IMG/VR virus record: IMGVR_UViG_3300020469_000021 | Coordinates: 40,957 to 104,956 of that record | Source: a virus | Direction: 5' to 3' (one strand) | Length of the DNA stretch: 64,000 nucleotides | Part shown: in pieces, positions 3,999 through 33,313 of the stretch | Numbering within the stretch: the stretch's first letter is position 1 | How the letters are laid out: each line of letters starts with the position of its first letter | The notes under the pieces: model-generated | What the model saw: the letters and a program-made list of their open reading frames with translations, nothing else | What the model was told of the DNA's origin: nothing | The model's database searches: none | Made by a program: the position numbers and the translations under genes

Positions 3999-6200
3999 AT
4001 GGATAATACATCGTTTATACAACTCACAGAACTATGGCAAGACGGCGGCTTTTCTGAAGTCGGAAATATTATTAACGAAGAAAAGTGGAGCGCTTCTAAG
4101 GTCGCAGAATTTTGCGCTTATGTTACAAGGTATCTTGGTACTTCTCAGCTAAATATACTATATAAATTTTTGTAATGGAAACCGAAACCGAAGTGCTTTA
4201 TTTAAATTCCGCTCATGAAATTATGGAGGCTAGTTTTGTATCTAGTCCATTTGAAATGAAGTTGGTTGCGGAAGCAATTTCTGAATTTACAAAGAAGCAT
4301 TATATAAATAATGAATCATTAGATGATTTTCGCTTAAAGCTTCAACAGGCATATCAATCCCACCATAATTTACATGAAAATGATTTCGGCTTCATAGAAG
4401 AAGATCGACAAGAGGTGTACGGAGCTTTTTAATCGTGAAAAGAAAGGAGCAAATAGAATTACTATGGATGACCCATGATTTTTTACTAGAAAAAATATAT
4501 CCTCTTGAAGAAGAAAACGAAATACTTTATGCAAATATAAAAGAATTCCAAAAAGAAGTAAACAATCCCCACAAATTACTAACGGCATTTCTGCAAATAA
4601 ACAAAGATTTAGATTTGTTTTATGGCAAACAATTAATTTGCTTGGACGATATAATTCCTTTGCATGAAGAGAATATAGACATTCCGCCAGAAAGAGAAAT
4701 TGACATCGAGACGCTTTATGCTTTGAGATGTGCTACCATTAATTTATTAGAAAACCACAGGGTCACAGGCGAAGAAATTAAACAATTAATTGACGATTTA
4801 AATGAAAGAAATTGAAAACAGGCGCAAAGAAAGGCATATCCTGCTTAAACTCGCGGAAGAATTGAGTGAGCTATCGGTAGAAGTTTTGCATTGCGTAAAT
4901 AAACCAAAGAAAGAAAATTTAAATGAAATCTTTTCAGAAATTAAAGATGTTGAAAAATGGATTTTAAAATTTAAAGAACTTAAAAATTAATTTAAATAAA
5001 AATATTATGATGAATGTTATACAAGTAGAAGATGCAAATAATGAAAAGTATCATATAAACCCGAAGCAGGTTATGTATGTAAAAGAAAAGGTGAGTGGTA
5101 GCTCAATTCTTTATAGAATAGCTCTAGCAAATGGAGAGTCTATTGTTACAAAAAATTCACATGGAATAGAGCAAATTATACGCTCTATGAAAAAATAATT
5201 TCAAAAAATGATTGAGCAAATAAGTGAAGAAATAAACTATCAAAAAGGCTACGACAAAGGTTGGACAGATGCCCAAGAATATCTTGCTAAAAAATTTGAA
5301 AAAAGTATGCTAAAAAATAAAACGGAGTCATACGATAAAGGCTATCAAGAAGGTGCGAATCAGAAAGATAACCAACCTTGTCTTTGCGGATTTTGGGGTA
5401 ATAAAAAATGAAAATATCAATTACTAATTACAATAAAACTTATAGCGTTGAATCTGATGAAGATGTAGATGCAGAAGGCTTGGCAGATATGTTAAAGGGC
5501 TTAATGGTAAGCATGGGCTTTCATCCTAAAAATGTAGACGAATTATTTAACACAGAATACGAATGGTTCTCCGAAGAAGAAAATGATTAATTGGATTAAA
5601 ATTGAAGACGAAATACCCGAAGAGGGGAAGAGACTGCTTTACTTTTTTGAAGGTACAGGTGTTTGGGTAGGTTTTTATTATGGAAGAGATGAAACTTACC
5701 CCGACTCAAATAACCATGTGTTCGGTTGCGAGGCAGGATTCTTAACAGGAGATGTCACTCATTACTGCTACATTGATTACCCCGAAGGTGGGGAATGGAG
5801 AGTCGAAGCAGATAAAGAATTTTCTAAAGAAGCAAAAAAAGAAATGCTAGAAATACAAAAAGAGCAGAATGAAATATTCAATAATTTACTTGGTGATTAA
5901 AATATGAAAACATTACATAATACTAAAAATTGCAAATACAGAAAATACTTGCATAAAAAATTAAAGCACGGCAAAATAAGTGGTAAGTTTTATAAGTTTC
6001 TTTGCAGAAGCTTTCCTTATCGACTTACTGCAAGAGAAGTTGAAATTTGTGTCACAATGGTTCTTGATGGCAGAATGAGTGAGAACAAAGCTATCACCAC
6101 TTTGCAAGGAGCAGAAACTGAACTTAAGAGACAAAGAGAGTTGTACAAGTCAAATGTAGAGTGCAGAAAAAAAATAGGGTGGAAACAAATAAATAAATGA
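3999..6200 (+). other. Run of about nine small hypothetical genes (incl. 4175-4432, 4435-4815, 4802-4990, 5007-5198, 5208-5411, 5408-5590, 5583-5900 DUF551-like, 5904-6200)
   Basis: Abutting or overlapping same-strand ORFs; 5583-5900 has WIxxxDExP...VTHY. Confidence 0.6.
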
Positions 6201-6622
6201 AAACAGGAATTACATTTTCAACTTTTGACCTTCTCCATGCGGGTCATATCTTAATGCTAAAAGAAGCAAAATCTGTCTGCGATTATCTTATTTGTGGTCT
6301 TCACATTGACCCGCAGATTGAGCGCCCTCAAAAAAATAAACCTATTCAAAGTGTGGTCGAGCGCTATATTCAATTATCTTCAGTAGAATATGTTGATGAA
6401 ATAATTCCTTATAATTTAGAGATGGATTTAGGCGACATTCTTCTAGGGTATAATATTGATGTTAGAATTATTGGTGCTGACTACAAGGGCGAAAACTTTT
6501 CGGGACTAGGCATTTGTCAAACCAAAGGTATTGAAATTTATTACAACGAAAGATCACATAGTTTTTCAAGCTCAGAATTAAGGAGAAGAATCGCCAATGC
6601 AGAACAAGAGAGGTTGCAATGA
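6197..6622 (+). CDS. Glycerol-3-phosphate cytidylyltransferase-like (TagD/RfaE class nucleotidyltransferase)
   Basis: TFDLLHAGH (HxGH), YVDEI, IGADY, RSHSFSSSELR. Confidence 0.88.
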   Translation: MKTGITFSTFDLLHAGHILMLKEAKSVCDYLICGLHIDPQIERPQKNKPIQSVVERYIQLSSVEYVDEIIPYNLEMDLGDILLGYNIDVRIIGADYKGENFSGLGICQTKGIEIYYNERSHSFSSSELRRRIANAEQERLQ

Positions 6623-7233
6623 AATTTTTAGAATGGGCATGGGATACTATTTGCGTAATTTGCATACTTTGTTATTGCATTTTTGCTAGTTTTAAATTAT
6701 TATTTACAAATGATGAATAAATTATTATACAATATGTTAAAAAACTCCGCACAAGCGGATATAGATAAAGCGAAATTAAGTCTCCATTTACTTGGAGAAA
6801 AAGCAGTTGGCATAGGAGATCATTCGACAGAAGATTTCTACAACAATGCCAAGGAAGCTCTATGCTTACTCGATGACGCGCAAGGTAGGCTAGAAGTTTT
6901 AAAACAATTTGAAAAACATTAATATGTAGAAAAATTAATTTAAATAAATTTATTATGTTTGATAGCGGTGTAGATAATCAGTTTGAAGAAGCTCATCAAA
7001 AAGGCTTGCACAGAGGCTTTGATCTAGGTTGGTCTTATAAAGGTAGATACTACCGACAAATAGTTAGAGATATGCTTAATGACAAAGACTATTTAATAAA
7101 GTCGGGAGAAGGAACTCTCAAAAGGCTCTTGAAGAAAATGGAAAGAGATAAAGACAACAGAGAGAACATTACAATAAATAGTTGGTAAATAGTTCTTGAC
7201 ACCTTCGGCTTCTTGTTATATAGTTGAGAAATT

Positions 7234-7752
7234 ATGGCAGAAGTAACACAAATAGAAGGAAATCTTTTGGACTTCCCAAATGATATTAATAGCATTGCTC
7301 ATTCCTGCAATACTAGACATATCATGGGTGCAGGTATAGCGAAACAAATTAAAGATCGCTACCCCGAAGCGCACGAAGCAGATTGGAAAGCGTTCAATCA
7401 AGAGTACGACCACAATGGACAATTTGTTCATTGGCTCGGTAAATTCTCAAAAGCCAAAATAAATGGCGACAAATATATATACAATATGTACACTCAAGCG
7501 AGCATCGGGACAGGTAGAGAAGTTCATTATGAAAAATTTTGGCAAGCATTAAAGAGGGTAGAACAAGACCTTTTTGAGATGAATGTAAATAAACATGAAT
7601 ACGATCCAACTCCACCTCCTGTCCTTGGATTGCCTTATGGCATCTCATGTGGGCTTGCAGGGGGAAATTGGGGAATAATAAAAGCAATGATCGAAGATAT
7701 TTTTCTTGACTCTCCTATAAAATGCTATATTGTTAAGTTTGATTTAGCATAA
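7234..7752 (+). CDS. Macro domain protein (Poa1p/TARG1/DarG-like ADP-ribose hydrolase)
   Basis: EGNLLD, IAHSCN, MGAGIAKQIK-x2-YP, IYNMYTQ, PYGISCGLAGGNW. Confidence 0.85.
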   Translation: MAEVTQIEGNLLDFPNDINSIAHSCNTRHIMGAGIAKQIKDRYPEAHEADWKAFNQEYDHNGQFVHWLGKFSKAKINGDKYIYNMYTQASIGTGREVHYEKFWQALKRVEQDLFEMNVNKHEYDPTPPPVLGLPYGISCGLAGGNWGIIKAMIEDIFLDSPIKCYIVKFDLA

Positions 7753-8135
7753 TGAACATTTTATACATAGTCAGAGGTCTTTCGGGGAGTGGCAAAACCA
7801 CTCTTGCCCATAATTTATCTCCTGTTGTTTATTCTGCTGATGATTGGTTTACAGATCAAGTAGGTAACTACGCTTTTAATCCAAATGAATTAAAAGTAGC
7901 GCATGAAAATTGTCAAAGAAATGTCAAATATGCTATGACGCAGAAAGCCAATGTTATAGCAGTAGCAAACACTTTCTCTCAAGCATGGGAAGCAGAACCT
8001 TACTTTGCTTTAGCCAAAGAATTTAATTACTCCCCTTTTGTTATTGAGTGTCAAAACTCTTTTCGAAATACACATGGAGTATCACAAGAAACAATTAACT
8101 CAATGAAAGATAGATGGGAGTCTAATTTAATATGA
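7752..8135 (+). CDS. AAA_33 P-loop kinase (polynucleotide-kinase-like)
   Basis: RGLSGSGKTT Walker A, SADD, VANT, NTHGV. Confidence 0.85.
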   Translation: MNILYIVRGLSGSGKTTLAHNLSPVVYSADDWFTDQVGNYAFNPNELKVAHENCQRNVKYAMTQKANVIAVANTFSQAWEAEPYFALAKEFNYSPFVIECQNSFRNTHGVSQETINSMKDRWESNLI

Positions 8136-32574: not shown

Positions 32575-32790
32575 ATGATTGATCCCGACGAGTGGATGGA
32601 GGAAGCAATAGGTGCAAGTGATCCTTTTAATTCATTATTATATAAACTTAATCAAATAAAAAATCAGATGAAACAAGAGTTGGGCAGAGAGCCTACCGCA
32701 GAAGAAATTTCTTCTGAAACAAAAATTGAAATTGGAGTAATAACAAAACTACTTCCTATCGTAAAAAAGAGAAAACTTCACGAACAATAA
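32575..32790 (+). CDS. Stand-alone sigma-70 region 3-like protein
   Basis: KLNQIKNQMKQELGREPTAEEISSE resembles the sigma70 region 3 LGRxPTxEEIA signature. Confidence 0.6.
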   Translation: MIDPDEWMEEAIGASDPFNSLLYKLNQIKNQMKQELGREPTAEEISSETKIEIGVITKLLPIVKKRKLHEQ

Positions 32791-32798
32791 AATTGTAC

Positions 32799-32827
32799 TT
32801 GACAAATATCAAATATTGTAGTATGAT
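32799..32827 (+). promoter_or_regulatory. Strong sigma70 promoter for ncRNA locus
   Basis: TTGACA-17-TATGAT; boxA-like GATCTTTAACA at 32877-32887. Confidence 0.8.
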
Positions 32828-32893
32828 ATATAAATAATCAAAATTGAGAACCAAACTCAAATAAATAAAATAAATCGATCTTTAACATTTTAA

Positions 32894-33313
32894 TTTTCCA
32901 AGAGGCAGGACAAGCAATGGAGTTGAAAAACCTTAAATGGTTAGTAAGAAAATTGCTGGAGAGCCTTTAGAAGGACTGAAGTTACCTATAGAGCTTAAGT
33001 AGTTACTGAAGAAAATTTTTTCACTTTTATTTTCCTAGCTACTACTTCGTATGAAGTAAGTTTCGCAAAAGGAGTTACTGACGAAATTCACTCTTGGAAA
33101 ACACTTTGGAAGGGCTTATAATCCTTCCTGTGGGTGACTGAACTAATCCTGTCGTGAGCGGGATAAAGTATGCAAATTCCCTGTGGTAGGGTAGGTAGAG
33201 TCCAATCGGATGAGCTTAGTACGATTCCAAGTATAGTTTGTAGTTCGAAGTAGGTAATCCTGAACTGATGTTCACGCCGAAAAGTTGGAGGTATACAGTA
33301 GTCCTCCCCCACA
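32894..33313 (+). ncRNA. Large (~420 nt) multi-helix structured ncRNA, family unassigned (ROOL/GOLLD-like class possible)
   Basis: 11-bp closing helix 32894-32904/33091-33101, about ten internal hairpins, second domain closed by TGTGGG/CCCACA; no credible ORF. Confidence 0.75.

Follow-up and report, generated by a model that had tools for sequence, protein, structure and literature searches.

A single 28-kb stretch of an uncultured phage genome, predicted to be expressed early, is cleared of restriction-type palindromes

The stretch of 64,000 nucleotides analysed here (the window) comprises bases 40957-104956, the final 64 kb, of the 104,956-bp virus contig IMGVR_UViG_3300020469_000021 (G000; guanine-plus-cytosine (GC) content about 34%, CheckV completeness 79%). 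Between window positions 4690 and 32955 lies a segment of roughly 65 small genes, almost all of them on the + strand, from which a broad set of short restriction-type words is entirely missing. We call this segment the strict zone. It probably results from restriction-site avoidance confined to early DNA that is exposed before any phage protection exists, while the late DNA would escape by a route that depends on early genes. Coordinates below are window positions unless they are given as genome positions.

A sequence-only reading of the window had described 4690-32955 as free of CCAG/CTGG, CCGG and CCTGA/TCAGG. Exact counting gave zero for all three, and the result is stronger than claimed, as many more words are missing. 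The final copy of CCAG/CTGG before the zone was found at 4687 and the next one at 32956; CCTGA/TCAGG has no copy between 3693 and 33259, and CCGG has none from position 1 to 39876. That reading had also placed these words in the first 4.7 kb, which does not hold for CCGG; its description of them as sparse in 33-46.5 kb and free in 47-64 kb agreed with the counts (sparse in 33-47 kb, frequent from 47 kb onward). Over the whole contig, the 285 copies of CCAG/CTGG leave one gap of 28,269 bp. Also at zero in the zone were ACGT, GGCC, GCNGC, ACNGT, CASTG, GGNCC, GGNNCC and CCNGG, together with CTRYAG, RGATCY, RCATGY, ACGCC/GGCGT, ATGCAT, GATATC, TCTAGA, AGATCT, CTGCAG and AGTACT, and most 6-bp palindromes containing G or C were likewise missing. 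As many as 67 REBASE recognition sequences have no copy in the zone, when 3.5 to 50 copies of each would be expected on scaling from the rest of the genome. The avoided set therefore comprises 20 or more specificities and, in addition, most 6-bp palindromes with G or C, which is broader than a single palindromic type II site, as had been suspected.

Base composition and codon usage do not predict these zeros. The maximal-order Markov expectation for the zone was 61 copies of CCAG/CTGG, 21 of CCTGA/TCAGG and 8.5 of CCGG. When synonymous codons were shuffled among the zone genes in 300 replicates, the expectations were 63.4±6.2 (minimum 46), 22.8±3.8 (minimum 11) and 9.0±2.8 (minimum 3), respectively, so that the depletion claimed by the sequence-only reading holds against such a codon-aware null. 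The same shuffling predicted 41 copies of ACGT, 18 of RGATCY and 24 of ACNGT, none of which occurs; in total, 15 word classes stood at zero against codon-shuffle expectations of 3.8 to 63. For asymmetric words, each orientation was separately at zero (CCAG 0 vs 61 and CTGG 0 vs 70, scaled from the rest of the genome), and both orientations of CCTGA/TCAGG, ACGCC/GGCGT and GCAGC/GCTGC were absent as well. Because each orientation is absent although nearly all zone genes lie on one strand, the pressure acts on double-stranded DNA, a point on which the earlier reading was right.

The missing words are overwhelmingly restriction-type palindromes. In 247 kb of zone DNA pooled from 16 genomes (the relatives are described below), 6-bp palindromes had a median observed/expected ratio of 0.09, compared with 0.93 for non-palindromic hexamers, and 51% of the palindromes fell below 0.1. 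Outside the zones, these genomes gave medians of 0.80 and 0.98, respectively. The palindromes spared in the pooled zones were mainly those made only of A and T, plus a few others, and the 4-bp words GATC, CATG, TGCA, CTAG, TCGA, AATT and TTAA were tolerated. The idea of one degenerate motif built around CAG/CTG was abandoned, since CAGG/CCTG occurs 70 times against 67 expected and many avoided words contain no CAG. It should be pointed out that GCGC is slightly over-represented in the G000 zone (43 copies vs 30 by codon shuffle); it is fully purged in the complete genome G005 and in several other relatives.

The purge reaches the protein level. With GCNGC, ACNGT, GGNCC and CCNGG banned, no in-frame codon pair is left for the dipeptides Ala-Ala, Thr-Val, Gly-Pro and Pro-Gly, and none of them was found among the 8,672 residues of the G000 zone (expected 19, 19, 11 and 11, respectively). 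The same four dipeptides were absent from the zones of G001, G002 and G005. Outside the zone, Ala-Ala and Thr-Val were near expectation, and Gly-Pro and Pro-Gly were somewhat lower. The forced codon pairs that had been noticed by eye turned out to be exact: in the zone, Pro before GAN was always encoded by CCC (29 of 29; elsewhere by CCA 56, CCT 27, CCC 19 and CCG 3 times), Ser before GGN only by AGT, TCG or AGC, and Ala or Thr before GGN only by ACA, GCA or GCG.

Relatives were gathered by searching IMG/VR with the rIIA homologue of the zone (26115-28457, + strand, 780 residues), which served as the anchor. The search gave 21 loci, one of them a duplicate record, and hence 20 distinct contigs of up to 214 kb, with rIIA proteins 43-91% identical to that of G000 and genomes of about 200 kb. 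Besides G000, four whole contigs were read, namely G001 (103 kb, the closest relative), G002 (101 kb), G003 (99 kb) and G005 (203 kb, CheckV completeness 100%, taken as a complete genome). In all 20 rIIA-bearing relatives, the same core words are missing from the surroundings of rIIA and return abruptly 4-6 kb downstream of the gene. Each of the five whole contigs contains exactly one zone, 22-28 kb long, in keeping with the earlier claim that the depletion is limited to one region; in G005, for example, 1,980 core sites leave a single gap of 22,193 bp. The architecture is shared as well. Late DNA with 8-12 sites per kb gives way, through an upstream step down, to the strict zone, which is followed by a partly depleted, GC-richer stretch of small cassettes (12-16 kb), and normal density resumes with the first of the late genes, which precedes that of the terminase.

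The avoided words fall into groups that behave differently among lineages. The core set is almost identical in all 21 genomes, and words of 5-6 bp are purged from the zone in every lineage. The 4-bp words differ: ACGT is kept in the zones of loci L012-L017, GCGC is purged only in L008, L009, L011, L018 and L021, and GATC is purged only in L002, which keeps CCAG. This pattern is as expected if the cheap purges of 5-6 bp words are permanent while the costly 4-bp purges (ACGT, GCGC, GATC, CCAG) are made only where hosts carry the matching enzyme. A second tier of avoidance extends over the genome. CCWGG is absent from G000 and G001 (0 vs 41-48 expected outside the zone), and CCGG is absent genome-wide from G002, G003 and G005 (0 vs 35-120 expected). 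The genome-wide absence of one short site is a separate, classical tier of avoidance. G005 also lacks CGRYCG and nearly lacks GTGCAC, and G003 lacks CYCGRG.

The purge tracks position, not gene. The GC content of the zone equals that of the rest of the genome. The endonuclease-family gene of the zone (14368-15363, + strand) contains no avoided word, while its paralogue outside the zone (genome 11495-12538) contains 13. Likewise, the clamp-loader gene (8679-9632, + strand) has no core word in the G000 zone, and its G002 orthologue, located in the partly depleted flank of that genome, has three. Three G000 genes outside the zone (genome 32049-33677) carry 13 avoided words, whereas their G005 orthologues (62-73% identical), which lie inside low-site DNA, carry none. 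These three genes sit upstream of an 11-kb block of glycan-type genes. As their copies in G000 still lack the four banned dipeptides, it is suggested that their departure from the zone is recent and that sites have returned so far only at silent positions. In G005, the corresponding locus (113-116 kb) is contiguous low-site DNA, which in the G000/G001 lineage is interrupted by the inserted glycan-type genes (about 11 kb, including FkbM methyltransferases and DUF1796; genome positions 33.7-45.6 kb of G000, up to about window position 4.7 kb).

Promoter density and gene content both indicate that the zone is an early region. With two or fewer mismatches allowed, 47 strict sigma70-like promoters were predicted on the coding strand of the zone and 14 on the opposite strand, compared with 1-2 per 4 kb elsewhere. 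The G005 zone showed the same enrichment, and CTTGAC, which contains the -35 core, was two- to three-fold enriched in all five zones. A scan of 1-9 kb at a loose threshold gave no excess. The zone genes and promoters point one way. Judged by homology, the gene content resembles the early genes of T4: besides rIIA, the zone encodes an rIIB homologue (28630-29808, + strand), an ATP-dependent DNA ligase (11254-12447, + strand), the clamp loader, other replication accessory proteins and about 60 small open reading frames (ORFs) of unknown function, of which 9 of 61 had any PHROG match. Many of the small ORFs encode very acidic proteins (isoelectric point near 4, 21-31% Asp plus Glu), several of which are conserved in G005 and G002; they include 5408-5590, 9629-10021, 12627-12926, 15984-16268, 22078-22335 and 23333-23500. 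These acidic proteins are candidate DNA mimics or inhibitors. An ESM Atlas search with one conserved acidic ORF returned nothing.

The strict zone is flanked by partly depleted DNA on both sides. The upstream flank (550-4689, + strand) is depleted about three-fold, with 28 avoided words in 4.1 kb. It contains FkbM-type methyltransferase genes, a DUF1796 gene, a tRNA-Thr gene (3634-3709) and small ORFs, and most of its genes have an orthologue only in G001. The left boundary was examined for end repeats and special repeats, and nothing distinctive was found. Directly past the right edge of the zone lies a full-length manA RNA motif (RF01745, 76 bits; 33108-33317, + strand), which is preceded by promoter-like sites at 32799 and 32844 and holds two of the first words to return. 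The downstream flank, region C (32956-46990), is depleted four- to seven-fold, has a GC content of 40-44%, and consists of small gene cassettes with 69-bp palindromic elements between them. Its leftover sites are mostly located in these elements, in the manA RNA, in intergenic DNA and in ORFs that lack distant orthologues; between 35071 and 42973, most ORFs that have an orthologue in G005 contain no core word, and a few contain one or two words of the wider set. Site density is normal again in the first gene of the late or structural block (46991-47710, + strand), the 720 bp of which contain 14 avoided words; further downstream follows the gene of the large terminase (54051-55928). The large proteins next to the terminase (55997-61594; 681, 538 and 392 residues; presumably portal and capsid) gave no PHROG match, and the virion module seems to represent a lineage not yet described.

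No close relative of G000 seems to exist among cultured phages, judging from database comparisons. An INPHARED DNA search with 20 kb of the zone gave no match, and at the protein level the cultured relatives found were all distant (rIIA at most 31% and terminase at most 27% identical). An auxiliary DUF1501 gene, whose best genomic matches are from Verrucomicrobiota (47-52% identity), gives a weak pointer to the host. In G000, a gene pair of DUF1549/DUF1553 and DUF1501 follows a phage-borne transfer-messenger RNA (tmRNA) gene (genome 13988-14425). A tmRNA gene is also present in G005 (66699-67062) and in G002 (52536-52946). The tmRNA tag AREEYDNLVQFEQAEELEMVA, an unusual one, is common to G000 and G002, and the tag of G005 is GNKNRVKAFGLKAKKLALAA.

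We consider that these results are explained rather well, and probably correctly, by site avoidance in the DNA that is exposed first. Host RNA polymerase would transcribe the zone at the very start of infection. As no protection by the phage would yet exist at that time, the zone would have to work in the cytoplasm as plain double-stranded DNA, and it would be kept site-free for this reason. The sequence-only reading had proposed avoidance of a sequence-specific nuclease or modifier. The first of these is supported by the restriction-type palindromes, their loss in both orientations and their confinement to one zone, and we infer that host restriction enzymes are the agent; for a modifier, no supporting genes were found. 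Outside the zone, such sites number in the thousands, and this DNA therefore must escape otherwise, by some route dependent on the early genes; a function encoded in the zone would protect it. Profile searches for PF00145, PF01555, PF02086, PF00303 and PF01702 found none of these families in G000, G001 or the complete G005, and G005 encodes no C5, N6/N4 or Dam methyltransferase, no hydroxymethylase of the thymidylate-synthase type and no TGT/DpdA. Known routes of DNA modification are hence not evident. G002 and G004 have one C5 methyltransferase each. By analogy with T5, whose DNA is transferred in two steps, or with T7-type phages, in which entry is coupled to transcription, delayed entry may be the likeliest escape route, at a little less than an even chance. 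As long as host nucleases are active, the cell would then contain only the site-free segment, whose products would allow the rest to enter or would protect it.

Several observations weigh against this explanation. No genome end could be placed near the zone, and the contigs are classed as linear without end repeats. One circular map, opened at different points, accounts for the assemblies G004-G007, and the opening of G006 falls within the zone. A fixed leading end is therefore putative, and staged entry would be impossible with headful packaging. Ten of the 21 loci end within 5 kb of rIIA (L002-L004, L006, L010-L013, L017 and L018), at scattered points that look like assembly breakage and not like a terminus. 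Their number far exceeds the prediction for random breakage, and strain-level diversity of the early region may account for it. The nearest cultured relative by terminase, Bacillus phage Slash, packages its DNA with a direct terminal repeat of 567 bp (PMC3861416); given a terminase identity of about 24%, this is a weak hint of fixed ends here. The partly depleted flanks on both sides of the zone are not predicted by a simple one-directional entry gradient and fit a flux of genes into the early domain at least as well. The zone covers 12-14% of a genome of about 200 kb and includes replication genes, unlike the pre-early DNA of T5, and homologues of T5 dmp, A1 and A2 were not found by tblastn and phmmer in five genomes (best E = 0.68). 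Among about 80 zone proteins compared with Pfam and PHROGs, none was annotated as anti-restriction, ArdA was not found, and no anti-restriction gene was identified. Finally, the core set, nearly identical in all lineages, is broader than the repertoire of one host would need.

Entry might not be staged at all. In this family of uncultured aquatic phages, the early region (25-45 kb), written almost without restriction-type words, could be a universal restriction-proof segment in a non-terminal position, and some unknown mechanism would then protect the other roughly 175 kb, unmodified and rich in sites, against type II enzymes as soon as infection begins; this we regard as unlikely. In a related proposal, to which we give somewhat less credence, the whole genome enters at once, and the DNA outside the zone is shielded by an unrecognised modification or by co-injected coating proteins, leaving the zone naked for host RNA polymerase. 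A zone in mid-map with fuzzy flanks fits such an accessibility domain better than a terminal segment, and the genome has many glycosyl-, sulfo- and methyltransferase-like genes of unknown target. However, the complete G005 contains neither a methyltransferase of the three main Pfam families nor the hydroxymethylase-type or TGT/DpdA genes noted above, no known modification is applied region by region, and the avoided set consists of many unrelated palindromes, not of one modification motif.

Site-rich late DNA might also be cut and then rescued. The whole unmodified genome would enter, and the ligase, recombination and nuclease-inhibitor functions of the intact early block would restore it. The ATP-dependent ligase and replication proteins encoded in the zone are consistent with this, and the BASEL study suggests that ligation aids restriction resistance in T5-like and T-even phages (PMC8594841). 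With about 10 core sites per kb of late DNA (about 1900 in G005), though, the ordered rejoining of dozens to hundreds of fragments is implausible, and the sites of blunt cutters (GGCC, GATATC) are purged like those of sticky cutters, so we judge this improbable. Hardly different in our estimation, and if anything a shade less credible, is an agent of the phage itself: early nucleases that destroy host DNA would require an early block without their sites, the late DNA being absent or made later. A core set almost identical in 21 genomes is what an inherited, phage-borne agent would give, the zone holds an endonuclease-family gene, and T5 degrades host DNA during its first-step stage (according to the annotation of T5 A1). 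A few nucleases, on the other hand, could not specify more than 20 unrelated palindromes, the avoided 4-bp words change between close lineages, which points to varying enemies from outside, and a delayed entry of late DNA would still be needed. Least credible by far is a recent acquisition of the zone, as a module, from a phage with another host history, or its origin in mutation bias, codon use or selection on RNA. The sharp boundaries of the zone would fit a mosaic joint, but the same zone occurs in 21 genomes with rIIA identity down to 43%, its GC content does not stand out, the counts depart from the codon-shuffled null, the presence of sites in orthologues varies with their position, and both strands are equally purged with the genes on one. 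Mosaic origin, mutation bias and RNA-level selection were rejected on the codon null, position dependence, conservation and the purge of both strands.

Avoidance in first-exposed DNA, if correct, has consequences beyond this phage. The lineage rewrote about 65 genes and banned four dipeptides rather than carry one site there, and tolerates thousands of the same sites elsewhere; the zone thus reveals the strength of the pressure that restriction enzymes exert on a single part of the genome. Where the pressure is local, avoidance statistics computed over whole genomes would underestimate the role of restriction. The map of purged and unpurged DNA would be a read-out, from sequence only, of the DNA exposed early, and could locate early or leading regions and their anti-defence genes in uncultured phages. 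The protection of late DNA must be broad against type II enzymes; it would lie among the small early proteins of unknown function or in the entry process, and is worth searching for.

Among known systems, the first-step-transfer (pre-early) DNA of T5, located in its left terminal repeat, is the nearest parallel. It lacks restriction sites in a limited region, while the remainder keeps its sites and is insensitive in vivo (PMC12455610, PMC8594841). In our T5 control (NC_005859), pooled G/C-containing 6-bp palindromes had an observed/expected ratio of 0.45 in positions 1-9140 and 0.75 in the next 40 kb, and no EcoRI site occurs in the first 30 kb; the zones described here gave 0.20-0.22 by the same pooled measure, against 0.81-0.90 in the rest. 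Both systems have site-poor DNA that is expressed earliest (by prediction here) next to DNA that keeps its sites, and in both a structured, repeat-rich stretch follows the region, namely the injection stop signal in T5 and the manA RNA with the 69-bp palindromic elements here. The present zone is three times longer (22-28 kb vs about 9 kb), is purged far deeper and includes replication genes, rIIA/rIIB and about 60 small ORFs, and neither a terminal repeat nor a genome end could be placed next to it.

A second parallel is offered by the leading region of T7-type phages, for example of Murciavirus facing the type I system Mme2I, in which motifs matter only in the segment that is injected first and transcribed by host polymerase, and escape occurs by loss of the motif there (PMC12455610). 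The unidirectional genes and promoters of our zone are what transcription-driven entry of the T7 type needs. That case involves one type I motif in a podovirus of about 40 kb, whereas more than 20 type II-like specificities are avoided here in 28 kb of a genome of about 200 kb, and unlike in T7-type phages, no phage RNA polymerase or Ocr-type gene was identified. According to work cited in PMC12455610, the leading regions of conjugative plasmids, which enter first, are depleted in restriction targets and encode early anti-defence functions; plasmid DNA is, however, transferred single-stranded, and the present case is a phage. With the genome-wide avoidance seen in phages, our genomes share the under-representation of type II palindromes on both strands and the genome-wide losses of CCWGG and CCGG. 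They differ in that the main effect is confined to 12-28% of the genome, is near total for almost all G/C-containing 6-bp palindromes, and is strong enough to strip four dipeptides from about 65 proteins. The principle is hence already known from T5, Murciavirus and plasmid leading regions. What is new here is the breadth of the purge, which covers nearly all G/C-containing palindromes, together with its length, its cost at the protein level, its two-tier pattern and the phage family in which it occurs.

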